A stretch of DNA of 19,557 bases from a virus. Lineage: Duplodnaviria; Heunggongvirae; Uroviricota; Caudoviricetes. The notes beneath the pieces are model-generated. The model was not told where the DNA came from, made no database searches, and saw only the letters and a list, made by a program, of their open reading frames with translations. Below, piece by piece: positions 1,401 through 19,021 of this stretch; the stretch's first letter is position 1, and each line of letters opens with the position of its first letter. Both the position numbers and the translations under genes were made by a program. The stretch lies in the IMG/VR virus record IMGVR_UViG_2529293142_000017, positions 1 through 19,557 of that record, one strand, 5' to 3'.

Positions 1401-1513
1401 TGTTCACCTCTGTTCACCATAAGAAAAAAGATAAGTAATACAGTAAGTTAAAGGGTGAACAATCGCAGTAATGACTGTTCACCGTCTGTTCACCACTGTT
1501 CACCCGTTCATGG
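1401..1513. repeat. Cluster of 6-7 TGTTCACC iterons (alpha-protein-type origin iterons)
   Basis: TGTTCACC at 1401, 1411, 1477, 1487 and 1497, inverted GGTGAACA at 1454, degenerate GTTCATGG at 1506, followed by an AT-rich stretch (1515-1600). Same octamer as in the repeats downstream of alpha, about 4.8 kb away. Confidence 0.65.
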
Positions 1514-2084: not shown

Positions 2085-2114
2085 TTGCCTTTTTCCGGCA
2101 TTTGCGGATATAGT
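2085..2114 (+). promoter_or_regulatory. Candidate sigma70 promoter (TTGCCT-N17/18-TATAGT) at the head of a structured leader
   Basis: Hexamers at 2085-2090 and 2108-2114, immediately followed by a perfect 7-bp hairpin (2121-2140). Position corresponds to the early leftward promoter and immunity region of P4-type elements. Confidence 0.3.
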
Positions 2115-2177
2115 TTTTCTGCTGCCGCAAAATCGGCAGCCGGGCGTGGAAACCCGAGCAATTCACAGGCGACATAT

Positions 2178-2199
2178 GACGCGCCATGCGTCTTTTTTT
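2178..2199 (+). terminator. Small intrinsic-terminator-like hairpin within the leader
   Basis: GACGC-GCCAT-GCGTC stem-loop followed by T7 (2193-2199), about 70 nt downstream of the candidate promoter. Confidence 0.35.
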
Positions 2200-2447
2200 G
2201 TGTCGCAATCAACGCCACAGAGCGCCAGATTATGGTGTGGTGTGTGGTCAGTCGTGCAGATGGCATTCCGTGCATCCTGCCCGCGTCCGCTCATTATGCC
2301 GCAGAGTCAATGGTAGCTCAGGCGGGGCAGCCTCCGGGCTGGCCGGTATCCTGTGAAGCCGGTATTTCCACCCCCGTCTGGGCTATCGCCATCGAGCGTG
2401 GAAACTCCGGCGATAGCGTTATTTGCTATTCACAGGAGGCTGCCATC

Positions 2448-3845: not shown

Positions 3846-6179
3846 ATGAAAATGAACGTAACCGCCACCGTCAGCCATGCACTCGGCCACTGGCCGCGTA
3901 TCCTCCCGGCGCTGGGGATTCAGGTGCTGAAGAACCGTCATCAGCCCTGTCCGGTCTGTGGCGGGAGTGACCGCTTCCGTTTGGATGACAGGGAGGGGCG
4001 CGGCACCTGGTACTGCAATCAGTGTGGTGCCGGTGACGGCCTGAAACTGGTTGAAAAGGTGTTTGGTGTTTCCCCGTCCGATGCGGCCGCAAAGGTGGCT
4101 GCCGTGACCGGCAGCCTGCCCCCGGCTGACCCGGCAGTGACGGCTGCCGCCGGTGCTGAAACAGACGCTGCCCGGAAGAACGCCGCCGCACTGGCACAAA
4201 CCCTGATGGCGAAAACCCGTCCCGGAACCGGTAACGCCTACCTGACCCGCAAGGGCTTTCCCGGCCGGGAATGCCGGATGCTGACCGGCACACACAGAGC
4301 CGGTGGCGTGAGCTGGCGTGCCGGTGACCTTGTGGTGCCACTGTATGACGACAGCGGCGAACTGGTTAACCTTCAGTTAATCAGTGCTGACGGCCGTAAG
4401 CGCACCCTGAAAGGCGGACAGGTCAGGGGCACCTGTCACACCCTTGAAGGACAGAATCAGGCCGGAAAACGTCTGTGGATAGCGGAGGGATACGCGACCG
4501 CACTTACCGTGCATCACCTGACCGGTGAAACGGTGGTGGTGGCGCTTTCTTCCGTGAATCTCCTTTCTCTGGCCAGCCTTGCCCGGCAGAAGCATCCGGC
4601 CTGTCAGATTGTCCTTGCTGCTGACCGTGACCTCAGCGGTGACGGCCAGAAAAAAGCCGCCGCAGCCGCAGATGCGTGTGAAGGTGTTGTTGCCCTGCCG
4701 CCGGTCTTCGGTGACTGGAATGATGCCTTCACGCAGTACGGCGGGGAAGCCACCCGTAAGGCCATTTATGATGCCATCCGGCCACCGGCTGAAAGCCCGT
4801 TCGACACCATGAGCGAAGCGGAGTTTTCCGCCATGAGTACCAGCGAAAAGGCCATGCGTATCTATGAGCATTACGGCGAGGCGCTCGCGGTCGATGCCAA
4901 CGGCCAGCTTCTGTCCCGCTATGAAAATGGTGTCTGGAAGGTGCTGCCGCCACAGGACTTTGCCCGGGATGTGGCCGGGCTGTTTCAGCGTCTGCGCGCG
5001 CCGTTCTCCTCCGGGAAGGTGGCCTCCGTGGTGGACACCCTGAAGCTGATTATTCCGCAGCAGGAAGCCCCCTCCCGCCGCCTGATTGGCTTTCGTAACG
5101 GCGTGCTCGACACGCAGAACGGCACGTTCCACCCGCACAGTCCGTCACACTGGATGCGCACCCTGTGTGATGTGGATTTCACCCCGCCAGTGGAAGGGGA
5201 AACGCTGGAAACCCACGCCCCCGCGTTCTGGCGCTGGCTTGACCGTGCCGCCGGTGGCCGTGCGGAAAAACGCGACGTGATTCTGGCCGCACTGTTTATG
5301 GTGCTGGCAAACCGCTACGACTGGCAGCTCTTTCTGGAGGTGACCGGTCCCGGCGGCAGCGGCAAAAGTATCATGGCCGAAATAGCCACCCTGCTGGCCG
5401 GGGAGGATAACGCCACATCGGCCACCATTGAGACGCTGGAATCCCCGCGTGAACGTGCCGCGTTAACTGGCTTCTCACTGATACGCCTGCCGGACCAGGA
5501 AAAATGGAGCGGCGACGGTGCCGGACTCAAGGCCATCACCGGCGGCGATGCGGTGTCCGTTGACCCGAAATACCGGGATGCGTACTCCACGCACATCCCG
5601 GCGGTGATTCTGGCCGTGAACAATAACCCGATGCGCTTCACCGACCGCAGCGGCGGCGTGTCACGCCGGCGGGTGATTATTCACTTCCCTGAACAGATAG
5701 CCCCGCAGGAGCGCGACCCGCAGCTTAAGGACAAAATCACCCGCGAGCTGGCGGTCATCGTGCGTCACCTGATGCAGAAATTCAGCGACCCGATGCTCGC
5801 CCGGTCACTGCTTCAGTCCCAGCAAAACTCAGACGAGGCGCTGAACATCAAACGGGATGCCGACCCGACGTTTGATTTTATCGGCTATCTGGAAACCCTG
5901 CCGCAGACCAGCGGCATGTATATGGGGAACGCCAGTATCATCCCGCGCAATTACCGTAAATACCTCTATCACGCCTATCTGGCCTACATGGAGGCAAACG
6001 GCTACCGGAATGTACTCAGTCTGAAAATGTTCGGGCTGGGGCTGCCGGTGATGCTGAAGGAATACGGACTGAATTACGAGAAGCGCCATACCAAACAGGG
6101 GATACAGACCAACCTGACGCTGAAAGAGGAAAGCTACGGCGACTGGCTGCCAAAATGTGACGACCCTGCAACAATCTGA
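3846..6179 (+). CDS. alpha: P4 alpha-type multifunctional replication protein (zinc-binding primase, TOPRIM, P-loop helicase, C-terminal origin-binding region)
   Basis: 777-aa ORF with AAGGAG RBS. N-terminal CPVCGG...CNQCG zinc motif, EGYATALTVH (TOPRIM-like) and Walker A VTGPGGSGKS. Same length as P4 alpha, and flanked downstream by iteron repeats. Confidence 0.95.
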   Translation: MKMNVTATVSHALGHWPRILPALGIQVLKNRHQPCPVCGGSDRFRLDDREGRGTWYCNQCGAGDGLKLVEKVFGVSPSDAAAKVAAVTGSLPPADPAVTAAAGAETDAARKNAAALAQTLMAKTRPGTGNAYLTRKGFPGRECRMLTGTHRAGGVSWRAGDLVVPLYDDSGELVNLQLISADGRKRTLKGGQVRGTCHTLEGQNQAGKRLWIAEGYATALTVHHLTGETVVVALSSVNLLSLASLARQKHPACQIVLAADRDLSGDGQKKAAAAADACEGVVALPPVFGDWNDAFTQYGGEATRKAIYDAIRPPAESPFDTMSEAEFSAMSTSEKAMRIYEHYGEALAVDANGQLLSRYENGVWKVLPPQDFARDVAGLFQRLRAPFSSGKVASVVDTLKLIIPQQEAPSRRLIGFRNGVLDTQNGTFHPHSPSHWMRTLCDVDFTPPVEGETLETHAPAFWRWLDRAAGGRAEKRDVILAALFMVLANRYDWQLFLEVTGPGGSGKSIMAEIATLLAGEDNATSATIETLESPRERAALTGFSLIRLPDQEKWSGDGAGLKAITGGDAVSVDPKYRDAYSTHIPAVILAVNNNPMRFTDRSGGVSRRRVIIHFPEQIAPQERDPQLKDKITRELAVIVRHLMQKFSDPMLARSLLQSQQNSDEALNIKRDADPTFDFIGYLETLPQTSGMYMGNASIIPRNYRKYLYHAYLAYMEANGYRNVLSLKMFGLGLPVMLKEYGLNYEKRHTKQGIQTNLTLKEESYGDWLPKCDDPATI

Positions 6180-6195
6180 CCCTCATGACTCATCT

Positions 6196-6219
6196 GACCG
6201 GCATCTGCCGGTCTTTTTT
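6196..6219 (+). terminator. Rho-independent terminator after alpha
   Basis: GACCGG-CATCTG-CCGGTC hairpin followed by T6, 17 nt after the alpha stop. Confidence 0.6.
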
Positions 6220-6238
6220 ATCCCTGAATTCCCCGAAG

Positions 6239-6536
6239 GTGAACAATCCACTGTTCACCCTTCACCGTGTATTCACCCGTTATCACACTGAAATTAAAAG
6301 AGAAAAACGAAAGGTGAACAGTGTGAACAATCAAATCAAAAAAAACTTTTTTTTCTCCCTGTGTGATTTCAGTACGGGGGATTAATCACCGGTATGAGTC
6401 ACACCGGCAGAATGCCGGAGGTGAAGAATCGAATGTTCACCCTTCACCCATTATTCACCACCTATCATACTGAAATAAAAGGAGAAAAAGAAAGGTGAAC
6501 AGTGTGAACAGTTCTTCCGAAAAAAATTTTTTCTTA
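6239..6536. repeat. Two ~120-bp direct repeats, each with several TGTTCACC/GGTGAACA iterons (crr-like cis replication region)
   Basis: Copy A is about 6239-6358 and copy B about 6420-6536, roughly 60 bp apart and about 85 percent identical by eye. Each holds GGTGAACA, TGTTCACC, TTCACC and TATTCACC variants plus GGTGAACAGTGTGAACA, and each ends in an A-run/T-run tract (A8-C-T8 and A7-T6). Confidence 0.7.
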
Positions 6537-6651
6537 CTTTTAATTGTGTAAAAAACAGGCGATGCGCGCAGTGTGTATAGATATGTGTATAGTTATATTT
6601 TTTGAATATAATAATATCTTATAAATCAATGCTTTAACTTGCAATATTCAT

Positions 6652-6669
6652 TCCTATTATCGGCACCAT
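6652..6669 (+). repeat. Attachment-site core copy (left): 18 bp identical to 19004-19021, with the form of a tRNA 3' end
   Basis: TCCTATTATCGGCACCAT reads as T-stem 3' half, acceptor 3' half, discriminator A and CCA. No D arm or anticodon arm lies upstream, so it is a partial tRNA copy. It sits about 115 bp after the crr-like repeats. Confidence 0.7.
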
Positions 6670-7274
6670 CAAGAAAATCAATAACTTAGCTTAACTTCTC
6701 TAAGAAATTGTATCTTCTGTTATCACTTACAAACGCCTATACGTTGTTATGGGCTTTGGTAGTGTAACACGTATGGGCGAGTAGTTCCCAAGCTCAACCT
6801 CGTAACAAGTTCCTTTGAAGCTGGAAGACGTGCCACCGTCTCTAAACCTTCTACCAAAACTCTTAGCAAGATGTTCCACACCTGGCGCGGTGTCCAATGA
6901 TGCTACACGTCGTGAGACGTTGCAGAGGATAAACAGGCTAAATGATGGGAAGAGTTTTAAGTGCAATAGTGGATTAAAGCCCACCTCTTCAAAACCTAAC
7001 TTGATCGGGAAAGAATCAAGCTCTAGCACGGTTTCGTCCACCGGAGTACAACGGGTGCCTGATAAGAGAAGAACTGCTAAGACTTCATAGCTTTTGTGAA
7101 AAAGCCCTTTTTAGTGGATACGCCTACGGCGCTTATTTTTTGGTATAACCATCAAAGGCGCTTTATGGCTTCTATTGTCTTGAAAATGTATCTTTACTTG
7201 TATTGTGTTTTATGCGTAGTCTCCCTGTGTAGTATGTAACTTGTTAATTTTCATATGAATACAGAGGCAACACG

Positions 7275-7433
7275 ATGAAAAACATTGCAGCTATAAAACG
7301 TAATAACCGCAAGATTCACGCTCGTAAGTTCCTGTCTACGCCAGAAGGAAAAGCCTGGTTAGAGCGTAAACAGAGAGAGAACGAAGAAAGAAAACTCCTT
7401 AGTGAGTTGAAATGGCTTAGAGAGGATTTCTGA
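7275..7433 (+). CDS. Possible small basic protein (52 aa), not in the supplied ORF track
   Basis: AGAGG 7 nt before ATG 7275. Encodes MKNIAAIKRNNRKIHARKFLSTPEGKAWLERKQRENEERKLLSELKWLREDF, a charged helical peptide. Too short for compositional support. Confidence 0.3.
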   Translation: MKNIAAIKRNNRKIHARKFLSTPEGKAWLERKQRENEERKLLSELKWLREDF

Positions 7434-7700
7434 AAATCTCCAGAACGCAACAGGACGCATTCTAACGCTGTTTTCATTGCTTGATATAGGGATGTATAGG
7501 TGGTGTGTGTTTAATGCGTCTGTGAGCTTGTTTTGTGCCTTATTTTGCATTTTCATAATGCAGAAGAGAACACGGAAAGCCTTAAAATTAATTATTTGGG
7601 TATTTAAGGCTATTTTCAGGTTATTTAAGGGTATTAAACTTGATTTAATTGGTTGAAATATAAACAGATAGTTCTGTATCTTATTGATTTATAAGGTTAT

Positions 7701-7780
7701 TTTTAAATAAAGGTAAATAAAAAATAAATAGCCATAAATAGCTATAAATACATCTAAATACCTATAAATCCCTTTGAATA
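7701..7780. repeat. Eight tandem 10-bp units ending in ATAAATA (helically phased A/T repeat)
   Basis: ttttaaataa, aggtaaataa, aaaataaata, gccataaata, gctataaata, catctaaata, cctataaatc, cctttgaata. The exact 10-bp period predicts intrinsically bent DNA. Confidence 0.6.
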
Positions 7781-7884
7781 CATATGAAGCCCTTCCCTTA
7801 TGGCTAGATTGCGAGAGGTGCTTAACGCGATTTTCAGCGCCCCCCGATCTGGAAAATCCAGAATCCCCAAATATCAAGGAGGCA

Positions 7885-8424
7885 TTACGCCTCCTCTTCT
7901 TCCTTCTTAATTCGCTGTACCGTCGAAGGAGCAACATTAAAGATCTCGGCGGTTTTACGCACTGACAGGCCATCAGAAAGGGCTTTCTTTATACCTTCTC
8001 TATCTACTGCTTTTCCATTACCACGCTTTGTAGGATTGACGGCTTGCGCTTCTCGTTTACGTTCTAACATCAGTTCACGTTCACACGTTGCCACTGCCGA
8101 CAACATAGTAAGCATCATTTTTCCCATCGCGCTTGTAATGTCAGCAATGATCCCTTCTTTGTGAAATCGAACAATTACACCACGATTATTAAGCTCTTCC
8201 ACTAAAGCAAGAATGTCTAAGGTGTTACGCCCTAAACGGTCGAGAGAGTGCACGTGTAAGGTGTCGCCTTCTCTCAGATAGGATAAACACGCCTGCAATC
8301 CTGGACGGTTAGTGTCTTTACCTGACAGCTTATCTTCAAAGACTTTATCAAGCGTTACTCCTGCAAGCTGGCGATCAGTGTTCTGATCTACAGTGCTCAC
8401 ACGCTTATAACCGATATTGCTCAT
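7885..8424 (-). CDS. Serine recombinase of the resolvase/DNA-invertase family (179 aa)
   Basis: N-terminal GYKRVSTVDQNTDRQ catalytic-serine motif, internal SLDRLGRN, and C-terminal HTH (TAEIFNVAPSTVQRIKK). AAGAGG RBS before ATG at 8424. Confidence 0.9.
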   Translation of the reverse strand: MSNIGYKRVSTVDQNTDRQLAGVTLDKVFEDKLSGKDTNRPGLQACLSYLREGDTLHVHSLDRLGRNTLDILALVEELNNRGVIVRFHKEGIIADITSAMGKMMLTMLSAVATCERELMLERKREAQAVNPTKRGNGKAVDREGIKKALSDGLSVRKTAEIFNVAPSTVQRIKKEEEEA

Positions 8425-8439
8425 AAAATCCTCTTAATG

Positions 8440-8560
8440 TATCGATTTGGCACTACTTCAATGCAAATGAGTATATCGTATTCATTTGGTCTGTTTCAAG
8501 CCTTATAGGTACGGAATATTACACGATTTAGCTGTATTCATTTGGTATGCCTAATGGATA
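8440..8560. promoter_or_regulatory. Candidate recombinase target or regulatory region with TTTGG-type repeats
   Basis: Direct repeats GTATTCATTTGGT at 8478 and 8535, and imperfect palindromes ATTTGGCA-N-TGCAAAT (8446-8470) and ATTTGGCA-N25-TGCCAAAT (8621-8661), immediately upstream of the recombinase start, where res or inversion sites usually lie. Confidence 0.25.
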
Positions 8561-8994
8561 CACAGGGGAATAGATTAAATGGTGTTCTGTTTATACAGGT
8601 TTATTTGTTAGATCAACAATTTGGCATTTCTAAACAGATGTTTGAACGTTGCCAAATGTCTTGACAACACAAGAAAAGGGCTTGCTATGCCACGCATTAC
8701 ACGAAATAAGGCTGTAAAAACAAAATAAATTTTAAAATTTGCACAAACGAGAAAACTCATTCGACAAATAATAGATTAATTTTTAGCCAACAATTTCTGA
8801 TGGTGCTCTGTAAGCCGCATTACACAAGGCTTTGCGAAAGTGATGTAAAAGTGAAGAAAGTTAACATTGCTCTTTTAAGCTACTTTTTCATTGAATTTTT
8901 AGTATGGAATTACACAGGAATAAGTTAGGGATATTCTATGATTTACACAGGGAATATAGGGGGATTATGGCACACACATAGAAAGGCATTACAC
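8518..8994 (+). repeat. Dispersed direct repeats of ATTACACAGG(A)ATA-type motif, at least 6 copies
   Basis: ATTACAC at 8518, 8696, 8819, 8909 and 8988, TTTACAC at 8942, plus ATACACAGGGGAATAG at 8558. Inverted copies (GTGTAATT) at 9476, 9530 and 9581. AATTACAC-N12-GTGTAATT forms a perfect inverted pair at 9510-9537. Confidence 0.5.
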
Positions 8995-9256
8995 AGAGTG
9001 AGTGCTATGTGACAAATGGATGTAACGAGAGGTTACATTCAGCTATCTGAAATGCTCTTTGTAAGAAAGTTGGTAGTAACGGTAGGTCATAGTGAGCTAG
9101 GGGGTAGGTCACTGTGAACTACAATAAGACTATTAATAAAACTATATTAGATTATTAATTAGATCATAATAATAATATTCTTTATATCTATATATATATG
9201 ATCTTTTGCCTTCCGGCGTTAGCTTCACTCTCTGGCAAGCAACCTTACTCCGCTAC

Positions 9257-9352
9257 CTTTCGGGCTTCGTGGCTGGCCCGTTCCGCTCACACCGAAAGCA
9301 AAGCGTTACTTTCTTCGTGTAACTATCGTTGGCGGTAACGCCCACGAAGAAA
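9257..9352. other. GC-richer island of interleaved inverted repeats inside AT-rich non-coding DNA
   Basis: CTTTCGG (9257) pairs with CCGAAAG (9292); GCGTTAC (9303) with GTAACGC (9335); TTTCTTCGTG (9310) with CACGAAGAAA (9343). The last two pairs cross each other, giving a pseudoknot-like or alternative-hairpin topology. Confidence 0.4.
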
Positions 9353-9631
9353 TACTATTGCGCTGTGCGCAGTAAGAGTAATCACCTAACCAATCATACT
9401 GATTGCTTACGTGTTAACTCTCTCTAACTCTTAATTACCCTCCTACATTTAATAACTCTGTTATTCTCTGTAGTTGTGTAATTACTCGAAGAGAGAGCGG
9501 CTAAAGCTCAATTACACTCTGCTTTCCTCGTGTAATTTCACTAAGCCTCAATACAATTTCACTTCCTACATTCTGTAGTCGTGTAATTGTTTTCGGTGGA
9601 AAAGCCAGAGGCGACACCGAAAGAGAATTCT

Positions 9632-9695
9632 GATCTTATTAATCTTATCTATCTTAGTTAATCTTCTTACTTATCTTACTTAATCTTTATCTACT
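9632..9695. repeat. Phased ATCTTA repeats (about 7 copies, 9-10 bp period) starting with a GATC 13-mer-like element
   Basis: GATCTTATTAATC at 9632-9644 resembles the oriC-type 13-mer class (GATCT + AT-rich), followed by aatcttatct, atcttagtta, atcttcttac, ttatcttact, taatctttat. Confidence 0.45.
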
Positions 9696-10223
9696 TTATT
9701 ATTAATAATAGCTTTATAAGCTCTCTGTAGCTCTCTGACGCAAGAAACAGCATTCAGGAAGGGAATCACCTTAGAAAAGTGTTCTTTGCGTCATAATGTG
9801 TTTTATGAAGGATTCAGAGGTGTTTCATAACAGGAATGTATAGAGGATACGTTAGGTAATTAAAAATAAGGGGTCTAAATGCTTCTCTAACAGCATTAAG
9901 CAGGGTAGGGAATGGAAACGCATTGCCTACATATATAATCTCACTACAGAGCTTTACAGAGCGTTTTATAAAGTGACTCTCTATCTTATATCTACCATCA
10001 CCTTTTTATATACCTAACAAATACCAAATAAGCCCCTTAAATAAGCCTCTGGCGAGCTAAACAGCCATTACATAAGGGAATGTATTGCTTTTATCAAAAC
10101 TTCGTTAGAACGCGTTTTAGAGCGTTTTAGACAATAATGAAGAATAGCACTACACAGAAGAGCACGAATTGCTAAGAAAAAATGTAAGTGCATGAAAAAG
10201 ATCAGATTTTTTGTGAAAAGGTA

Positions 10224-10252
10224 TTGACAAATGTTTCTTTATATGTAATAAT
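10224..10252 (+). promoter_or_regulatory. Candidate sigma70 promoter for the plus-strand small-gene operon
   Basis: TTGACA (10224-10229), 16-17 bp spacer, TAATAAT (10246-10252), about 110 bp upstream of the first gene. Confidence 0.5.
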
Positions 10253-10361
10253 AGGTATTAGAGGGACAGAAAAACATTCTTCTCTAAATAATCAAAATCA
10301 ATGCACTTTGAAGCCGTCAGGCTTGCAAGGTGTTTTTCTTTTAACTGAATAAGGAGTTTTT

Positions 10362-10550
10362 ATGAAATGGTTTACACCGAAACACGTCGTCGAGGCATTT
10401 AAAAAAGGTGAGCTAACACGCCACCAGGTAGTAATGAACCGTAATATGGCAAGGAGTCGAGGTTATCCAGAGCGAGCAGCTTGCTTCAATGAAGCACTCA
10501 AGATTATTGATGAACTAAGAAAAAATGAAAAAGAATCTGAAACAGAGTAA
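10362..10550 (+). CDS. Hypothetical small protein (62 aa)
   Basis: AAGGAG RBS 5 nt before ATG. First gene after the promoter. Basic and helical. Confidence 0.5.
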   Translation: MKWFTPKHVVEAFKKGELTRHQVVMNRNMARSRGYPERAACFNEALKIIDELRKNEKESETE

Positions 10551-10569
10551 AGAATAGAAGGAGAAAACT

Positions 10570-10740
10570 ATGAGCGAAACTACAGAAAAGAAAAGACAAC
10601 CACGCACTTGCTTTCATATTCCTGATGAAGTATTTCAGGTGTTGTTTAAAGAAGCCAGAAGTAGACGTATCACTGTTACAGATTACATTCTTGATATGTT
10701 GAAAAGAGAGGCTGAAACACTCTCAAATAAAAGCAAGTGA
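10570..10740 (+). CDS. Probable ribbon-helix-helix (Arc/MetJ/CopG-like) DNA-binding protein (56 aa), not in the ORF track
   Basis: AAGGAG RBS 7 nt before ATG 10570. RTCFHIPDEVFQVLFKEARSRRITVTDYILDMLKRE fits a beta-strand plus two helices. Confidence 0.5.
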   Translation: MSETTEKKRQPRTCFHIPDEVFQVLFKEARSRRITVTDYILDMLKREAETLSNKSK

Positions 10741-10793
10741 TTTTTATCACCATAGTAGCGCCGTAGAGCGTGATTACATCAAGGAGATTTTTA

Positions 10794-11483
10794 ATGATTA
10801 ACCAACTAACTTTTACAAAACACTATGACACGTTTGATAATGTATCAAAGATTTATTCTGATAAATTCCCTCAAGGAAAAGATTTAGATCTATTACATAT
10901 TGTGCTTTATTTTCGATTCCTTAGTTATCAGGAAAACAACCTTAATTGTTATGAAAGTCACGAAACATTAGCTAAGATTTTTAAGTCTTCAGCGTCAACA
11001 ATTAAACGTAAGATAAACGATCTTAAAGAGATGGGATTATTAGAAACATCCCCACATCCTGATCCGTATATTTCATCTTTGATTTACAATGCTCTCCCTC
11101 TCACAGATGCACATATTACTCCCCCAGGAGAATCATCACTCTCTGATCTTTCTGAGGCAGCAGAAGCACAGGAACAACCTAAAGGCCATAAACAGCCTTC
11201 TTTTGATGTTCTTGATGATTGGGATGCGCCTTTGCCGTGGGAGACGGAAGAAACACCTGTTTCATCAAGTGAAAAGGTAGCTAATGATAATGAGGAGGAT
11301 GTGTTAGAGAATTTTGCCTCTCTTATCTGCCAGCAGAAACACACCAGAACAGGAGGGGCATCATTTATAGAATTTGCAAATTCACTAGCTTATAGACACG
11401 GGCTAAAACGACCAAATGGTATTGAGGCATATTTTTCTAAGAATTACCCAAATGTGTATGATGACTTTGATATTCCATTTTAA
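10794..11483 (+). CDS. Winged-helix DNA-binding protein with acidic C-terminal region (229 aa); candidate replication initiator or regulator
   Basis: AAGGAG RBS 7 nt before ATG 10794 (the track's upstream GTG start would cover the RBS). HTH-like segment ESHETLAKIFKSSASTIKRKINDLKEMGLLE. Acidic Ser/Glu-rich C-terminal half. Confidence 0.7.
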   Translation: MINQLTFTKHYDTFDNVSKIYSDKFPQGKDLDLLHIVLYFRFLSYQENNLNCYESHETLAKIFKSSASTIKRKINDLKEMGLLETSPHPDPYISSLIYNALPLTDAHITPPGESSLSDLSEAAEAQEQPKGHKQPSFDVLDDWDAPLPWETEETPVSSSEKVANDNEEDVLENFASLICQQKHTRTGGASFIEFANSLAYRHGLKRPNGIEAYFSKNYPNVYDDFDIPF

Positions 11484-11494
11484 TAAGGAGGGTT

Positions 11495-11773
11495 ATGATT
11501 CAATATTTAGTAAAAAATCAAGTAGACAGAATTCAGTGTAATGACACAGGAAAACGCATCTACGAAACACTTGCTTACCTCTATAAAGGAAAGCCAACAC
11601 CGCTAAAATATAGCGATGTGTTACATCGAGCAGGGTGCTCTGAAGATGGTTTAAAATTCTGGCTGAAACAGCTATCAAATTTCGGTGTTATAGAGATTAA
11701 AGAATTATCTTTCTCTACATTCAATCTCAAAAGACTGGATAAAGAAATAGTATTCATCTATTCCACTCTCTAA
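11495..11773 (+). CDS. Hypothetical protein (92 aa), possible small HTH protein
   Basis: AGGAGGG RBS directly upstream, 11 nt after the previous stop. The YSDVLHRAGCSEDGLKFWLKQLSNFGVIEI segment looks HTH-like. Confidence 0.6.
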   Translation: MIQYLVKNQVDRIQCNDTGKRIYETLAYLYKGKPTPLKYSDVLHRAGCSEDGLKFWLKQLSNFGVIEIKELSFSTFNLKRLDKEIVFIYSTL

Positions 11774-11905
11774 AATCTCTCTATGTAATTAAAATATAAA
11801 AGGAAAACATTATTATGATAGTAGCTATGTATTGGTTATTGTTCTTTCTCACGTTAGAAACATATTTCGGGGTGTTTTCCTTTAAAAGAAAAGGAAAAGT
11901 AAATA

Positions 11906-12313
11906 ATGGCAAAAAGAAAAAACAACGTTGTTAAGAAAATCGGTGATTCAGCTTCTCTTCTAAGTAAACCTAAATCTATTCTAAGACGTAAAGACTTTAA
12001 AGAGCTAGTTACGCTCTCCAAGCAAAATAGCGCCCCTGGCGAATGGAAAACAGAGATCATAGAACATTCTCCCTCTGTGCCTTGTGGAGATGAATTTAAC
12101 GCCTTACAAGAAATCTTATCTTCAACACCTGGCGTATTCTGGAAACCTAGAAAAAGAAAAGAGTATATTGTTGATAGCTCTGATTTACGCAAATACCAGA
12201 TTTTAGGATTTGAAGACTATAACCACTACGTTGGTTATCTCGCCACCAATGGCCTAAATAATTTAGTTCCTGAATTCCATTTAGATAATGATGATCACTA
12301 TGGAGACTTTTAA
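11906..12313 (+). CDS. Hypothetical protein (135 aa)
   Basis: AAAGGAAAAG RBS region before ATG. Basic N-terminus (MAKRKNNVVKK). Same strand and codon style as neighbours. Confidence 0.6.
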   Translation: MAKRKNNVVKKIGDSASLLSKPKSILRRKDFKELVTLSKQNSAPGEWKTEIIEHSPSVPCGDEFNALQEILSSTPGVFWKPRKRKEYIVDSSDLRKYQILGFEDYNHYVGYLATNGLNNLVPEFHLDNDDHYGDF

Positions 12314-12314
12314 T

Positions 12315-12653
12315 ATGAACAAAAACACGTATGATACAATTTACTCACTAATTAATTATTATGAGGATGATTACCTCCTGCCTTTAAACCGCGCTGAACT
12401 TGAAGCATATAAAGAAAATACACCATCGGCACTAAATGAGGCGTTTAAACACTGGGATCTAGCTGTGAATGCCTTGGAGCACCTCTTTAAGCGTGTAGAG
12501 ATGCTCTGTAAGCGCGAAAACGCATATCTGACAGCGGATCAGATATGGGAGCTATCAAACTGGATAGAAGATATTGAATCTGATGTTCGCTATGTGGGAG
12601 ATGGCCTTATCGAACTCGCACAACGCTTAGGCGCTGCTATCACAGAAGAATAA
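12315..12653 (+). CDS. Hypothetical protein (112 aa)
   Basis: GGAG 9 nt before ATG 12315, which lies 1 nt after the previous stop. The track's earlier start (12288) overlaps the upstream gene and has no RBS. Confidence 0.6.
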   Translation: MNKNTYDTIYSLINYYEDDYLLPLNRAELEAYKENTPSALNEAFKHWDLAVNALEHLFKRVEMLCKRENAYLTADQIWELSNWIEDIESDVRYVGDGLIELAQRLGAAITEE

Positions 12654-12682
12654 AAAAAGCAACAAAAAAGTTGTAAAATATC

Positions 12683-12711
12683 TTGACATTTCATATATTG
12701 TATGTTAATAT
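12683..12711 (+). promoter_or_regulatory. Near-consensus sigma70 promoter (TTGACA-N17-TAATAT)
   Basis: Hexamers at 12683-12688 and 12706-12711 in the intergenic gap after the 112-aa gene. Confidence 0.55.
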
Positions 12712-12909
12712 AATTATATGGGGTGATTATTTTTCCTTTATTGGTTCGATATTAAAAATTCTTCTTGTCGTTAAAGGGGAGTAAAATCTCCGCTCCCCGC
12801 TTCTCCTCCTTAAGTAAATACTGTGTCATTATTACCTCTTTTTTCCTTTGTTATGCATACATCTTGGAGTATGCATAACATAGGGTAATTACATAGGTAC
12901 AAGTTAATA

Positions 12910-12941
12910 AAAGGCGGCTCTAAATGCTGCCTTTTATTTTG
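12910..12941 (+). terminator. Intrinsic-terminator-like hairpin ending a ~200-nt ORF-free leader
   Basis: AAAGGCGGC-TCTAAAT-GCTGCCTTT (9-bp stem with one G-T) followed by TATTTTG. Lies between the strong promoter and the next gene start at 13003. Confidence 0.5.
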
Positions 12942-13002
12942 CCCGTTATGCAACTTAAAAGTTGTATTTCTTACTTTAAACAAGGTAACAAGGTTTATAT
13001 AA

Positions 13003-13215
13003 ATGTTGTTTTTAAACGATAAAGAGCAAATCATCAAGTATAAAGATGAAATGCTGAAAATTAATCCACAAATTACCGAAATGGTAGCTAAATACGCTGG
13101 GTGTTCTGTCGAGGAAGTAGAAAGATGTGTTGAAAAATATTTTTCTCCTTCTTCTCCGTCTACACCTTCCCTTAATGAATTAATCAAATTAAAAGCTAAG
13201 GAGATTACTAAATGA
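13003..13215 (+). CDS. Hypothetical small protein (70 aa)
   Basis: Weak RBS (AAGG about 12 nt upstream). Stop overlaps the next start (ATGA). Confidence 0.45.
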   Translation: MLFLNDKEQIIKYKDEMLKINPQITEMVAKYAGCSVEEVERCVEKYFSPSSPSTPSLNELIKLKAKEITK

Positions 13216-13574
13216 TTATTGATTTAGACACTCTATTTCCAGTTCGAAAGACTTTCACAGATATTGTAAGTTATTGTACTGATCCGTTTGCCTCTGTAGA
13301 AAGCAAGGTTTTTGCTTCTCTTCCTGCTGATGTTGAATGCGGAGACTTGATCACCAGCACTGGCGCTAAATATGAATCAGGAGATGATATCTATGTTGTT
13401 ATGAGTGAATTTTTAACGGCTGGAGAAAATAAGCCTGTAGATGTTTTACGTAGCAATGCTGGCCTTGTCTGCATCAAATCTGATGCGCTGAATGCTGTAA
13501 GTGAAGCAGCAAAAACAGCATTAATTAAAAAAGGCTTCCAGCTTGAAGGGTTCCATTCTGTTTTCACTTCTTAA
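13212..13574 (+). CDS. Hypothetical protein (120 aa)
   Basis: AAGGAG RBS 8 nt before ATG, overlapping the previous stop. Acidic protein. Confidence 0.6.
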   Translation: MIIDLDTLFPVRKTFTDIVSYCTDPFASVESKVFASLPADVECGDLITSTGAKYESGDDIYVVMSEFLTAGENKPVDVLRSNAGLVCIKSDALNAVSEAAKTALIKKGFQLEGFHSVFTS

Positions 13575-13592
13575 TAAAAGGAATAATAATAA

Positions 13593-14621
13593 ATGATTTT
13601 AGGTAATGATTACGTTGATTTAGCTCCTCTGTTCTCTGCGCATAGCACTAGAAACTATCTGCTTTCTACTCTTGATTTTACGGATTCTGTAGGGGTTACA
13701 TCTCATAAAGTAGCTGTTTCCCAGCTTGTCGAAAGCAACGAATCTCTGTTCAACAAAGAAACCTCTCGTTTCTCTTCTGAACACAACGTTACTAAGCGTG
13801 AACAAGGCAAAGAATATCTTATCGAAATCCCGTACTTTTTAAGGCAAGACCTGATCAAACCGCAGGACGTGCAAGGCAAGCGTAAGCCTGGCACTGATTT
13901 TCAGGAAACACTCACTGATATCTATGCTGACTATGTTGCTAAACACCACGTAGCGTATCAGCGCACTAAAGAAAGCGTATTGGCTGCTTCTTTGTTTAGT
14001 GGTCGCACCTATACCCCGAAAACTGACGATGTTCTTATCGAGTGGGGCAAGCTGTTTAACGTATCAGCTATGAAAGCCACTGTGAACGCTTCCAGCACTG
14101 ACACCACGAAGATTTTTAAAGAATTTGATCAGATTGCTACGAATATTATCGACAGAGCACAAAGCCAGGCGGCTGCTGTAGAAAGAATTGTTGTTTTCTG
14201 TAAACCTGACGCCTTCTCTGCAATTCGATTCTCTGCTGGTATGGCAAACGCATTCCAGTATGTAAGCCCACTGGAAGAGGGGAATGTTGTGTATCAGCGT
14301 CGTGACCTGCTGCCAGGGGTGACAGCGTTCACTATCCCAGGAACTAACATTGATGTTGTTAAACTGGTAGATCCGCTACACCTTGCACATATGACCGCAG
14401 ACGCTGTAGCTGTTCCGAAGTTTGCTAAAGGCTCTAATGTATATCAGAACATCTACGGGGCTGCTTCCAGCACCTTTGAACTGATTAATGCCGCTCCTGC
14501 TGAGGTGTACAGCTATAGCTATGAATCTTCTCGTGGTGATGCTGTTAACGTTGTTACAGAGAATAGCCAGATGGTGGTAAACCACGGCGTTGGCTTCTCT
14601 GTTCAAATCACTGTTAAATAA
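13593..14621 (+). CDS. Hypothetical protein (342 aa) with virion-structural-like composition; candidate major structural protein
   Basis: RBS-like AAAGGAA before ATG. Rich in Ala/Ser/Thr/Val/Asn with no Cys-rich or nucleotide-binding motifs. Followed by a strong terminator, as is common after highly expressed structural genes. No family recognised from sequence. Confidence 0.8.
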   Translation: MILGNDYVDLAPLFSAHSTRNYLLSTLDFTDSVGVTSHKVAVSQLVESNESLFNKETSRFSSEHNVTKREQGKEYLIEIPYFLRQDLIKPQDVQGKRKPGTDFQETLTDIYADYVAKHHVAYQRTKESVLAASLFSGRTYTPKTDDVLIEWGKLFNVSAMKATVNASSTDTTKIFKEFDQIATNIIDRAQSQAAAVERIVVFCKPDAFSAIRFSAGMANAFQYVSPLEEGNVVYQRRDLLPGVTAFTIPGTNIDVVKLVDPLHLAHMTADAVAVPKFAKGSNVYQNIYGAASSTFELINAAPAEVYSYSYESSRGDAVNVVTENSQMVVNHGVGFSVQITVK

Positions 14622-14640
14622 CATTTTAACGTGTAATAGA

Positions 14641-14673
14641 GGCGTGGCGTGTATTCACGCTTCGCCTTTTTTT
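14641..14673 (+). terminator. Rho-independent terminator
   Basis: Nested GC stem (GGCG...GCGTG-TATT-CACGC...CGCC) followed by T7, 20 nt after the 342-aa gene stop. Confidence 0.65.
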
Positions 14674-14707
14674 ATTTATTTTTTAAATTTTGAGAGGTGA
14701 TTAAAAT

Positions 14708-14911
14708 ATGGAAGTGATTCTGAAATCAAAAAATGGTGTACACGTACATTTAGATGCTAATGATTCTAGAGGATTGTTAAATCTGAAATATCTATGTTCT
14801 CTCCTAGATGTTCCATATGAAGGAGTAAAAGCCCGTATGTTCAGACTAAACGAGAGTATTGATCAAGCTCTACACCATTTCTTAAGTAAAGAAGGTGGTA
14901 AAAATGATTAA
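14708..14911 (+). CDS. Hypothetical small protein (67 aa)
   Basis: GAGAGGTGA RBS 7 nt before ATG. First gene after the terminator. Confidence 0.5.
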   Translation: MEVILKSKNGVHVHLDANDSRGLLNLKYLCSLLDVPYEGVKARMFRLNESIDQALHHFLSKEGGKND

Positions 14912-14925
14912 TAAGGGGATTTTAA

Positions 14926-16755
14926 ATGTTAGAAATTAACACTTCTAAAATTAAGAACACAGTTACATTTAGTGTAGATAAAGACAGCTTGAAAAAAGCG
15001 AAAGACTCTATTACAGGCTTAAAGGAATTCGCAGAAAATATCAAGCCAGCTAAATTAAGGTTTGATAATGTCACTAAAGGCTATAAGAAAGCACAAAACG
15101 AAGTAGACAAGATTGCTCAACAGAAAGCCAAAACAGAAAAACAGAATCAAAGAGCACAAGCTGCCGCAGCAAGAGCACAGGCAAGGCAACAGGCACAAAT
15201 AGCAGCACGCAAGGAGAAAGCAGAATTAAAGCTCCTTGATGTGTCAAGCTCTATCAGTGCAATGCACCGTCTCTCTGTAGCTGAACAATACAAAGCTATT
15301 GCACAGGCTAGAGAGATAGCAAAACAATATGAGCAAGGGGCTATCTCGCTTGCACGTATGAATAGCCAGATGAAACGCCTACAACAGCAACAACGTAAGA
15401 TTAATGGCAACCGAAAAGCACAATTAGCCCCCGTTAAGGGAGGATCAGGGAATTCCGCCACTATGGGCGCTCTGTTATTTGGAGGCGCTACGGCTGCTGC
15501 TGGCGTGATGGCTGTTAGTAAAGCCTCTGAATTTATGGCTAATAGCTTCGCTAACGCAGAGACACAAGGAGAGCTAATTCAACGTGCAAGGCTTGGCGGT
15601 GTAGACGTTAACCAGATGTATAATATTACAGAATGGGCGTATAAAAACGGCGTTGACTCTATGATGGGTGATCAAGGGGCTAGAAAATACCTGGATCAGA
15701 TGAAAGATGTTAGGGAACGTGCCGCAAAATCCTACAGTGAAGCTGAATTGGTGAAAGATAAGAAAACCGGAAAATCTGAATGGAAAGGCGGTGATAACGC
15801 TATTAATGAACTTCTAAACATCGGTGTTATTAACAAAAGCGACCTTAAAAAATTTGCTGATAATCCAGCCGGATTAATTTCTAAGGCTGTTAATGGAATG
15901 ATGAAAAAAGGGTTTTCAGACTCCCAAATTGGACAACGTTTAGAAGACCTGGGCGATGATTTGATGCTTACGTCAAAATATTGGCAACGTTCCGTTAAAG
16001 ATGTACAAGAAAGTATTAATCAGCAAAAAGCCTCTGGAAAATGGCTAACAGAAACACAGCAAGAATCTATCGTTAAATTCAGAGAACTAAACAGACAGCT
16101 TTCACAGCTTTCTGATGCAAGACAAGTAGCATTTGTAGACGGCTTTATGAAATCTCTCGATCCAAAAGTAACGGAAGAGTTTTTGAAAAACCTTTCTAAT
16201 CTCACTCCGTATTTTACGAAGCTGGGAGAAGCTACAGGAAGTCTCTTTGAAGCTATTATGAAGATTGTAAACTGGTTTAATCGTAATGATGATAAGACAG
16301 ATGCTATTCAGAAAAATTTAGGTGATGCACCGCCTTTGAGTAATGAAGGGATGAAACAGCATCTTTCTAATCTCGTTCCTGACCAATATAAAGGCGCTGG
16401 CACTGCAACAACTACACCTGATAATAGTCATTCTCTCTTTAACACGATTAAGGGATTGCTTTTCGATGATAATTCTTCTGTGTCAGATGTAAAAATGTCA
16501 GTCAATGAAGCACCGATAACCAATCTCAAACAGGGTGCTTTAAATAATCTTGCAATGACAACTCCGGCTTATAATTTATCTCCTGTGTTTAATCTGAATC
16601 CGACCTTTGAAGTGGTAACAGAGGTTCCTCTTACTATTAATTCTGACACATCAAGATTAAGCGATTATGTGGATTTTACAGCGAGAGCAAGTCGGGATAG
16701 CTTCTTGAAATCATTAACATTAACCAGCTTATCAGGACAATCCAACGGCGGGTAA
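14926..16755 (+). CDS. Hypothetical protein (609 aa) resembling a tape-measure or pilot protein: basic Gln/Ala-rich coiled coil plus a Gly/Ala hydrophobic segment
   Basis: AAGGGG RBS 9 nt before ATG. Residues ~60-170 are Lys/Gln/Ala-rich helix (QKAKTEKQNQRAQAAAARAQARQQAQIAARKEKAE), followed by GALLFGGATAAAGVMAV. No signal peptide and no enzymatic motif recognised. Confidence 0.8.
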   Translation: MLEINTSKIKNTVTFSVDKDSLKKAKDSITGLKEFAENIKPAKLRFDNVTKGYKKAQNEVDKIAQQKAKTEKQNQRAQAAAARAQARQQAQIAARKEKAELKLLDVSSSISAMHRLSVAEQYKAIAQAREIAKQYEQGAISLARMNSQMKRLQQQQRKINGNRKAQLAPVKGGSGNSATMGALLFGGATAAAGVMAVSKASEFMANSFANAETQGELIQRARLGGVDVNQMYNITEWAYKNGVDSMMGDQGARKYLDQMKDVRERAAKSYSEAELVKDKKTGKSEWKGGDNAINELLNIGVINKSDLKKFADNPAGLISKAVNGMMKKGFSDSQIGQRLEDLGDDLMLTSKYWQRSVKDVQESINQQKASGKWLTETQQESIVKFRELNRQLSQLSDARQVAFVDGFMKSLDPKVTEEFLKNLSNLTPYFTKLGEATGSLFEAIMKIVNWFNRNDDKTDAIQKNLGDAPPLSNEGMKQHLSNLVPDQYKGAGTATTTPDNSHSLFNTIKGLLFDDNSSVSDVKMSVNEAPITNLKQGALNNLAMTTPAYNLSPVFNLNPTFEVVTEVPLTINSDTSRLSDYVDFTARASRDSFLKSLTLTSLSGQSNGG

Positions 16756-16786
16756 TTCCCGCCATAACATTACAAGGAAAATTATT

Positions 16787-17500
16787 ATGGCAACGGCGGG
16801 AATTTTAACCATACGATCAGCAAATACTCCAGAACAACACGTTCAGGCTGTTTACAAAGCAGAACAAGATATAAACTCTACAAAAAACGAAAATAGCAAA
16901 GCTAATAAAACAAAAGGAGAGAACGGATTTGCTATTGTTACCAGTGGACTGGCATCTTCTGGCAATGACGTTTATGAAAATTATATGGCACTGGCCTTTG
17001 ACAGTGTTGACGACGTGAACGTGAGACGTTCGGCAGATGTTACAAGCTACCCCGTAGAAAATGGTGCTACTGTGTCTGATCACGTTCAAATTAAAAACAA
17101 TAAATTTTCTCTTAAAGGAAGGATCACTGAAACACCGATTAAAAGCGATCCTGGCTTGTTAAAGAGTGCAGGGGTGAACGGGAACAGAAGATCATTAGCT
17201 ATCGACTACCTGAATCAGATTATGGACAGTAGACAGCCTTTTCTTCTTGTTACAGAAAATAAAACTTTTGAGAACGTTGTTTTAACAGGCATCGAATACA
17301 CAGAAGAGGCAAGCGAATCCCTGGTATTTGATCTTAGCTTTGAGCAGATCAGGCTCGTTTCGTATGGCACTGTAAACACTGTAGCTCTCAAAACACAGCC
17401 ATCTAAGAACATTGGGGCTAATATGAAAAAACGTGTTAACACTGAAAAATCAAGTAGTGAAGGTGAAGACACTATTACTCCTGCCTTTAAACAGGAATAG
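16787..17500 (+). CDS. Hypothetical protein (237 aa), structural-like, co-transcribed with the 609-aa gene
   Basis: AAGGA RBS about 9 nt before ATG, 31 nt after the previous stop. Beta-rich composition (VTSYPVENGATVSDHVQIKNNKFSLKGRITETPI). Confidence 0.8.
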   Translation: MATAGILTIRSANTPEQHVQAVYKAEQDINSTKNENSKANKTKGENGFAIVTSGLASSGNDVYENYMALAFDSVDDVNVRRSADVTSYPVENGATVSDHVQIKNNKFSLKGRITETPIKSDPGLLKSAGVNGNRRSLAIDYLNQIMDSRQPFLLVTENKTFENVVLTGIEYTEEASESLVFDLSFEQIRLVSYGTVNTVALKTQPSKNIGANMKKRVNTEKSSSEGEDTITPAFKQE

Positions 17501-17542
17501 CTGTAAATGCCTCTAAAACGCTCTGTAACGATGTAATTATAA

Positions 17543-17573
17543 AAGAGGCTACCAATCTATGTTGAAGCCTCTT
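17543..17573. terminator. Hairpin between convergent genes (possible bidirectional terminator)
   Basis: AAGAGGC-N17-GCCTCTT with flanking A/T, between the 237-aa gene stop (17500) and the integrase stop (17582). Confidence 0.45.
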
Positions 17574-17581
17574 TATTGCGT

Positions 17582-18946: not shown

Positions 18947-19003
18947 TCAATTAGTAATGGTCGTAGGTGATGGCATTAACACGAGATTAATCGAGTGTTT
19001 TAC

Positions 19004-19021
19004 TCCTATTATCGGCACCAT
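19004..19021 (+). repeat. Attachment-site core copy (right): 18 bp identical to 6652-6669
   Basis: TCCTATTATCGGCACCAT, then AAAATCAA shared with the left copy after a 1-3 nt difference. A 10-mer GGTCGTAGGT resembling a tRNA T-arm lies 35 bp upstream (18959-18968). Confidence 0.7.

Follow-up and report, generated by a model that had tools for sequence, protein, structure and literature searches.

Anatomy and conservation of the crr region in a P4-type satellite prophage: the A-run/T-run palindrome belongs to each repeat unit

The crr region of phage P4 and its counterpart in the window

Replication of phage P4 relies on the origin, ori, and on a second site in cis, crr, an auxiliary site that was described in the 1980s. 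Type I iterons at both sites are bound by the alpha protein. A single 120-bp repeat of crr suffices, crr tolerates changes in distance and orientation, and replication was mapped as starting at ori and not at crr. P4 replication is not known to depend on DnaA. In the annotation of the P4 record and in the literature, crr is described as the 'cis required region for replication'. The P4 GenBank records X51522 and X05623 annotate crr together with talpha ("talpha put. rho-independent terminator"), and also list two "crr 120bp direct repeat" and ten "ori type 1 repeat" features. The winged-helix C-terminal domain of P4 alpha binds the origin repeats (PMC4234260, PMC2777425).

The DNA analysed here, referred to as the window, is a stretch of 19,557 nt from the IMG/VR virus record IMGVR_UViG_2529293142_000017. 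An earlier note on this DNA had described two hairpins and two A-run/T-run tracts associated with a pair of crr-like repeats. All four features lie at the positions listed below and are not due to chance, and the repeats proved to be crr, as indicated by 90.5–92.6% nucleotide identity to phage P4 over window 6100–6532 and by the explicit crr annotation in the P4 records. On the strength of these comparisons, we are highly confident that window 6196–6532 is where the replication module of a P4-type satellite prophage ends on its 3' side, with talpha followed by crr. The features are as follows:

1401–1504, plus strand: ori (ori1-type), with six exact TGTTCACC iterons and very AT-rich flanks; the P4 origin likewise has six type 1 repeats
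3846–6179, plus strand: alpha gene, 777 aa, from the open reading frame list and Pfam; aligns with the 777-aa P4 alpha coding sequence
6196–6219, plus strand: talpha, intrinsic terminator, with a 7-bp GC stem at 6196–6213 (hairpin 1) and T6 at 6214–6219
6233–6354, plus strand: crr unit 1, from repeat families D1/D2 and the iteron search; corresponds to the P4 crr 120bp direct repeat 4471–4590
Iterons of unit 1: 6238–6245 (-), 6252–6259 (+), 6259–6266 (+, degenerate), 6270–6277 (+), 6313–6320 (-), 6322–6329 (-)
About 6285–6312: AT-rich core of unit 1
6338–6354, no strand: A8-C-T8 palindrome that closes unit 1, from the sequence
6355–6414, plus strand: spacer between the units, 60 nt, variable, with two main haplotypes in E. 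coli
6404–6418, plus strand: hairpin 2, CCGGCA-gaa-TGCCGG, from the sequence and its folds
6415–6532, plus strand: crr unit 2, from the repeat and the iteron search; corresponds to the P4 repeat 4291–4410
Iterons of unit 2: 6420–6427 (-, one mismatch), 6434–6441 (+), 6452–6459 (+), 6494–6501 (-), 6503–6510 (-)
6520–6532, no strand: A7-T6 palindrome that closes unit 2, from the sequence
6572–6595, plus strand: tandem 12-mers TGTGTATAGATA/TGTGTATAGTTA, repeat family D6, outside crr
6652–6669, plus strand: att core copy TCCTATTATCGGCACCAT, 18 nt, which marks the right end and is repeated at 19004–19021

The gene order, alpha (3846–6179), terminator (6196–6219) and crr (6233–6532), matches that of P4, and the locus shows the position 3' of alpha and its terminator, the twin repeats, the iterons, the homology and the partner ori of a P4-type crr. 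The crr and talpha of the window are an already known and ordinary element; given its description in the 1980s, meeting it again does no more than mark the window as a P4-like satellite. The remainder of the window also fits a P4-type element, with the C4 antisense RNA, isrK and a1b1 immunity elements at 2108–2393 and, at the left end on the other strand, open reading frames with matches in E. coli A7 to sid and to part of a delta-like gene. The crr type of this window was found in 1077 of 5426 complete E. coli genomes, and P4-like satellites are thus very common.

The alpha product carries the Pfam domains Zn_Ribbon_Prim, Toprim, D5_N, DUF5906 (SF3 helicase) and Pox_D5, and its C-terminal Pox_D5 region matches the part of P4 alpha that holds the origin-binding winged helix. 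The partner ori lies 4.8 kb from crr, and its iteron layout matches that of the P4 origin. The iteron TGTTCACC occurs in 11 exact copies in the window (0.56 expected), every one of which falls within 1401–1504 or 6238–6501.

The two crr units measure 122 and 118 nt and are separated by the 60-nt spacer. They were recovered by the repeat finder as two in-register direct-repeat families with start-to-start distances of 182 and 181 nt, and a gapped alignment of 6233–6355 with 6415–6533 gave 99 identical columns out of 123. Each unit contains five iteron sites with at most one mismatch, in both orientations; one further, degenerate site lies in unit 1. The information per column is high over the iterons and the A/T tract, low 5' of the first iteron, and zero past the T-run. 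As read from these values, a crr unit is bounded by the first iteron on one side and by the final T of the palindrome on the other. The annotated 120-bp repeats of P4 start with CCG(A/G)AGG and end at the last T of the T-run, which places the tract inside the known unit and makes it no extension of it. The proposal that the duplicated unit is larger than the iteron block thus brings nothing new as regards the tract, and it fails for the hairpins, which are 25 nt out of register with the repeat. These points, namely the identity of the crr with that of P4, its anatomy and its patterns of conservation, were observed directly.

A search of Rfam with 6100–6700 returned no match better than E = 0.076. 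A 66-aa open reading frame at 6185–6385 was considered as coding and rejected, since polymorphic runs within it differ in length by numbers not divisible by three, which breaks the frame.

The crr is the right end of the P4-like element. Homology among elements of different att types ends at the last T of 6520–6532, and in E. coli three unrelated att-type sequences start directly after the T-run of unit 2, which makes this T-run the exact junction between the replication module and the variable integration module. The tandem 12-mers at 6572–6595 are probably integrase arm-type sites, by analogy with the tandem attP arm repeats of P4; the TGTGTATAG doublet also follows crr in five other loci (L025, L027, L029, L030 and L068). 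Between the two att cores lies a second element of ~12.3 kb, with a resolvase, an HTH protein, an E-type major capsid protein, a Dit-like tail protein and a tyrosine integrase. The same tandem arrangement is present in E. coli A7, ahead of a LysR-gene fragment and paoD, while E. coli KSC9 carries the P4-like element only, at a tRNA-Thr gene and ahead of the same LysR fragment and paoD. The sharp limit of crr is of use for annotating satellite boundaries and for designing minimal P4 replicons for phage-particle delivery vectors.

Copy number of the units and the two hairpins

The comparison covered 80 related Enterobacterales loci, 12 further E. coli sequences and 63 IMG/VR contigs. The 80 loci were gathered with the C-terminal half of alpha from species-representative genomes, and range from Escherichia-like MAG contigs to Pantoea, Erwinia, Pectobacterium, Rahnella and Yersinia. 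With nhmmer, a crr-unit profile was then run over the 1.4 kb 3' of alpha in 82 sources, including the window and P4. A crr unit was found in 72 of these 82 sources, as one unit in 42 and as two in 30, while in 10 the profile search found none within 1.4 kb of alpha. A single-unit crr is thus common in nature, which fits the sufficiency of one repeat in P4.

In a rough neighbour-joining tree of the units, the two units of locus L048 fall together, as do those of L073; the second units of the Enterobacter clade form a cluster of their own, and the second unit of the P4 clade is nearer to first units. These groupings indicate that the twin state arose more than once. In L048, the second copy comes with a degenerate, in-register terminator and is set apart from the first by 165 nt of unrelated sequence; the tblastn match there extends beyond alpha. 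This copy looks like the remnant of a second element and not like an internal duplication of crr.

Hairpin 1 (GACCGGC-atct-GCCGGTC at 6196–6213, then T6) has a stem of 7 bp, six of them GC pairs, and starts 17 nt past the alpha stop. It has the GC-rich stem-loop and the T-run just past the stop codon by which a rho-independent terminator is recognized, and it was the sole terminator-like site in 5900–7100 in a terminator scan. Its predicted folding stands out against shuffles both as RNA (dG -14.1, z -4.9) and as DNA (dG -8.2, z -5.5). A core of the form ACCGGC-N3-4-GCCGGT was found at most 90 nt from the alpha stop in 67 of the 82 sources; in these 67, the pair flanking the core is G-C in 49 and A-T in 18, with no mismatch, while the loops vary freely and at least five T occur within 8 nt after the core in 65. 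Within the P4 clade, hairpin 1 is invariant (14 of 14 sequences). Moreover, in three loci (L007, L020 and L022) ~680 nt are inserted between alpha and crr, and there the hairpin remains with alpha and unit 1 has no hairpin upstream. The talpha annotation of P4, the covariation, the T-rich tail and the association with alpha where crr is displaced together identify hairpin 1 as the genuine alpha terminator, as the earlier note had supposed. It is part of the alpha transcription unit, not of crr.

Hairpin 2 also folds well (RNA dG -14.5, z -3.8; DNA dG -9.7, z -5.5), with no shuffle as good, and the last four bases of its 3' arm are already inside unit 2. Relative to the repeat, the two hairpins are 25 nt out of register, hairpin 1 ending 24 nt before the first iteron of unit 1 and hairpin 2 ending 1 nt before that of unit 2. 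That the hairpins are out of register with the repeat is a point beyond the earlier note.

Two other roles were considered for this stretch. Hairpin 2 was rejected as a second terminator because it has no T-run, is followed by AGGTGAAGAA and gave no call in the terminator scan. The spacer as a whole was rejected as a conserved long imperfect palindrome: its z-scores are -2.3 to -2.8, the second E. coli haplotype alters eight positions uncompensated and pairs worse when examined by hand, and the spacers of other clades are unrelated.

It had been proposed that the working unit of crr consists of a hairpin, an iteron block and an A/T tract, with a GC hairpin before each block. The good folding of both hairpins, which share ACCGGCA...TGCCGG, speaks for this, as does the intact stem of hairpin 2 in 60 of 63 IMG/VR P4-clade loci, the remaining 3 having the P4 variant. 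A local alignment of the alpha 3' end and terminator with the spacer gave 20 matches over 28 columns, which is suggestive only, given that 82 of 2000 shuffles equal it. The second unit of L048, preceded in register by a degenerate terminator copy, might be added, but we set it aside because it looks like the remnant of a second element. The displaced register of the hairpins and the missing T-run of hairpin 2 argue against the proposal, and so does its distribution. CCGGCA-gaa-TGCCGG was found in the P4 clade only (the window, P4, L004 and L005). A perfect stem of at least 6 bp with at least 4 GC pairs precedes 5 of the 34 units that are not directly behind alpha, compared with 30 of 997 background windows; three of the five belong to the P4 clade, in L039 the stem is that of the alpha terminator, the gene being disrupted, and in L081 it is unrelated. 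The twin-crr clade of Enterobacter, Citrobacter and Klebsiella has a different, C-rich spacer with stems of at most 4–5 bp, apart from one subclade with an unrelated imperfect stem. No comparable hairpin was thus found in the other twin-crr lineages or at crr units displaced from alpha, and the 42 crr-bearing sources with a single unit, out of 72, have the alpha terminator alone upstream.

The variation within the P4 clade points the same way. Among 14 aligned sequences, the 3' arm of hairpin 2 is invariant, while the 5' arm shows three different one-sided substitutions, none of them compensated. P4 itself and four of the 14 sequences carry such changes, which weaken the DNA dG from -9.7 to -7.3, -5.6 and -6.5 kcal/mol. 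Comparison thus largely refutes the inclusion of the hairpins in the unit, a design that we now consider very improbable, and the claim that a hairpin stands before each iteron unit fails for displaced units in other lineages. Conservation among P4-like elements, by which the earlier note was to be judged, holds for the A/T tracts and does not extend to the hairpins as parts of the repeat.

Judged by these alignments, hairpin 2 belongs to the spacer of the P4 clade and not to the design of crr; it is a mostly intact, lineage-specific feature without evidence of selection for pairing. The spacer itself occurs in 20 variants among the 63 IMG/VR loci, and its sequence is unrelated in other twin-crr clades; P4-clade loci differ less in hairpin 2 than at the other spacer positions. 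Since it is intact in most P4-clade copies, hairpin 2 may have a lineage-specific function there.

As to its origin, hairpin 2 could be a decaying paralogue of the alpha terminator that was brought in with the second unit and has since lost its T-run and linker, an explanation to which we give a little less than an even chance; the second unit would then have been acquired by duplication or by recombination between tandem elements. The two hairpins have the arms ACCGGCA...TGCCGG in common, and taking out 25 nt (6212–6236) turns the unit-1 arrangement into that of unit 2. L048 has such a configuration, with the terminator copy still in register, and the one-sided, uncompensated substitutions of hairpin 2 would be expected of a decaying copy. 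The local alignment, however, only marginally beats shuffles (p ~0.04), an in-register alignment is also possible (CTGAATTCCCCGAAGG vs CAGAAT-G-CCGGAGG), and the uniformity of hairpin 2 relative to the other spacer sequence of the P4 clade does not suit decay.

The A-run/T-run palindrome and the proposed working of crr

The presence of an A-run and a T-run at the end of each unit, which the earlier note had pointed out, extends well beyond the window. A strict pattern (A≥4, 0–2 bases, T≥4, at the 3' end of the unit) was found in 75 of 91 complete units, compared with 11 of 1689 background windows (0.65%) and 21 of 1820 shuffled tails; the 16 units without it have near-matches, e.g., A7CTCT6 or A3TCT6. 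In the 75 units the A-run precedes the T-run, and the reverse order, T then A, was also matched in only 10. At the centre, 41 units have C, 16 have G and 11 have TC, whereas in 4 no base separates the runs. Of 67 units, 46 have the junction between the A-run and the T-run 16.5 nt past the terminal iteron pair, the full range being 14–17.5 nt, and the information content of the A-run and T-run columns is comparable to that of the iterons.

Within the P4 clade, the runs vary between A7–9 and T5–8 and were never lost, as seen in the E. coli alignment and in the IMG/VR loci; in distant clades they go down to A4 and T4. The tract is conserved from Escherichia to Pantoea, Pectobacterium and Rahnella. 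By this comparison, the A/T palindrome is a conserved part of each unit, and strongly so across the enterobacterial relatives. It is the one loose thread of an otherwise known element.

We propose the following working of crr. Its two ~120-bp units each present type I iterons (TGTTCACC and variants) inverted around an AT-rich core, closed by an A(n)-(C/G)-T(n) palindrome ~16–17 bp past the last iteron pair. We infer that alpha, encoded immediately upstream, binds the crr iterons and the six ori iterons (1401–1504), and that the origin would be bipartite, with crr acting in cis as its second half. The iteron block and the A/T palindrome together would form the functional module, the latter being most likely a structural DNA element beside bound alpha, either easily untwisted or intrinsically bent; this role is suggested by the analogous viral origins served by SF3 helicases, in which an AT tract lies beside the initiator sites. 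A single-strand hairpin or cruciform formed by the tracts was considered and rejected, as their dG of 0 to -2.8 kcal/mol is no better than that of shuffles.

The nearest-neighbour stability of the two tracts is -16.0 and -16.7 kcal/mol, ~2 sd less stable than the regional 17-mer mean of -20.9 (sd 2.3); they are matched, at ~-16.6, by the AT-rich core of each unit, and the DNA flanking ori is far less stable (-14). These values bear on the first of two readings of the tract, which the earlier note had termed a likely unwinding element and for which it is a plausible candidate: alpha bound at the adjacent iteron pair would melt the palindrome and use it as an unwinding or helicase-entry element, crr being origin-like. 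The tract is among the least stable 17-mers of the region, lies at a fixed distance from the iteron pair, is deeply conserved, and is paired with an initiator that carries an SF3 helicase domain; in the SV40 core origin, inverted initiator sites are likewise flanked by an AT-rich region thought to melt (PMC1779811). Melting, however, requires low stability only, and yet specific bases and the order of A before T are conserved. The core of each unit is equally unstable, and the flanks of ori are much less stable. In P4, moreover, replication starts at ori and not at crr. We regard melting as possible but, on balance, doubtful.

An A(n)T(n) tract is curved, whereas a T(n)A(n) tract is not. In a second reading, the palindrome would be an intrinsically bent tract or the site of a host protein that reads the minor groove, and it might, just as tentatively, shape the nucleoprotein complex of alpha and crr and aid the pairing of ori with crr rather than melt. 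The order of A before T and the homopolymeric character are kept across clades while slippage alters the lengths of the runs, the tract stands at a fixed offset from the iterons, and the free central base (C, G, TC or absent) fits a requirement for shape and not for particular bases. A single tract, however, bends DNA only modestly, and no IHF-type consensus was seen beside the tract by eye, which is a weak test. This second reading is likewise possible and likewise not probable.

The conservation of order and homopolymer together with the freedom of the central base indicates at least as much a requirement for shape as for melting, and points to a narrow minor groove, to A(n)T(n) curvature, or to contact by alpha or a host protein. 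We consider an untwisting or loading site and a bend or shape element about equally likely, each with a rather low probability. It is conceivable, at a similarly modest likelihood, that crr needs the A/T palindrome in order to work, instead of simply ending there; if true, the role of the tract would give a way to approach the question, long unexplained, of why P4 replication needs a second cis site.

Comparison with known systems

The theta plasmid origins made of iterons plus a DNA unwinding element (pSC101, R6K and P1 types) resemble crr in having repeated initiator sites beside AT-rich DNA. They differ in that crr has no DnaA boxes and no repeated motif of the 13-mer type found in such unwinding elements, and in that its iterons are inverted and not directly phased. 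The closest analogy in design is provided by the origins of viruses with SF3 helicases, namely SV40, with its site II, AT tract and early palindrome, and the papillomaviruses, with their E1 sites. As in crr, inverted short initiator sites are found with an A/T tract and are used by an SF3 initiator with an origin-binding domain, and the AT-rich region of SV40 is thought to melt after assembly of the double hexamer (PMC1779811). There is, however, no sequence homology, and both the binding domain and the motif are different, so that this is an analogy and not membership.

The P4 ori (ori1) is like crr in its TGTTCACC iterons, its adjacent AT-rich DNA and the same alpha that would bind it. Unlike crr, it has six iterons that are mostly direct, lacks an A(n)T(n) palindrome and any duplication, and has flanks much less stable than anything in crr.

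The differences between the window and P4 itself are small up to the end of unit 2. They consist of a 9-nt duplication ahead of the terminator, of T8 in tract 1 and A7 in tract 2, where P4 has T6 and A8, and, in hairpin 2, of a C where P4 has T, which adds one more base pair. Past unit 2, P4 has the attP for leuX and then int, whereas the att type of the window is a different one, with TGTGTATAG repeats and a core that recurs at 19004–19021. The two have the following in common: crr and talpha are placed directly behind a 777-aa alpha gene with the same terminator stem, the two ~120-bp direct repeats stand 60 bp apart with the same iteron layout and A-run/T-run ends, and an ori with six type 1 iterons lies 4.5–4.8 kb away.

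Junction of the replication and integration modules

The alignment A2 of E. coli P4-clade sequences revealed three att types, that is, three unrelated downstream sequences, each of which begins right after the last T of unit 2 of the cis replication region, crr (window 6532/6533). The replication and integration modules are therefore joined at the T-run that ends the A7-T6 palindrome of this unit. Further downstream, between the crr and the att core, the window carries tandem 12-mers, TGTGTATAGATA/TGTGTATAGTTA, at 6572-6595, which probably belong to a non-P4 att/int module as arm-type sites for its integrase. The doublet TGTGTATAG was also observed 3' of the crr in five of the compared related loci (L025, L027, L029, L030 and L068).

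A second element in tandem

An 18-nt direct repeat, TCCTATTATCGGCACCAT, occurs at window 6652-6669 and 19004-19021, and its two copies enclose a second element of ~12.3 kb (6670-19003), which follows the P4-like satellite in a tandem array. This element, which looks like a small satellite-like island encoding a capsid, comprises the following coding features:

7885-8424, minus strand, resolvase
10770-11483, HTH protein
13593-14621, E-type major capsid protein
16787-17500, Dit-like tail protein
17582-18946, minus strand, tyrosine integrase

The same tandem arrangement was found in E. coli A7, and the second element is present at 99.8% identity in three other strains.

Variation around the alpha end and the crr

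The interval between the alpha terminator and the crr differs among the related loci. In L007, L020 and L022, ~680 nt with an ORF are inserted there (about 50-730 nt past the alpha stop), and in L034 and L081 the crr lies 840-880 nt downstream; this gap may be a cargo insertion point within the replication module. At the extreme end of alpha, directly 5' of the terminator, a 9-nt duplication, ATCTGACCCTCAT / ATCTGACCGGCAT (window 6174-6204), occurs here and in several E. coli elements but is missing from P4.

The crr itself is also altered in places. In L091 (E. coli 0H15), unit 2 is truncated after CCCATTATT, probably by an IS3 insertion into the crr, since an IS3-family transposase gene is annotated ~140 nt beyond the break. 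The iterons have diverged in sequence (e.g., GGTGTAGA, CTTCACC, GGTGACGA and GATGAAGA) in L055-L065 and L076-L082 (Pantoea, Erwinia, Pectobacterium). The layout of the crr units and the AAAATCTTTT palindrome are retained, suggesting that the iterons and the DNA-binding region at the C terminus of alpha co-evolve.

The P4 immunity region

Upstream of alpha, Rfam models place the P4 immunity region at window 2108-2393, with these components:

2108-2160, c4-a1b1 targets (Rfam)
2121-2198, isrK (Rfam)
2306-2393, C4 antisense RNA (Rfam)
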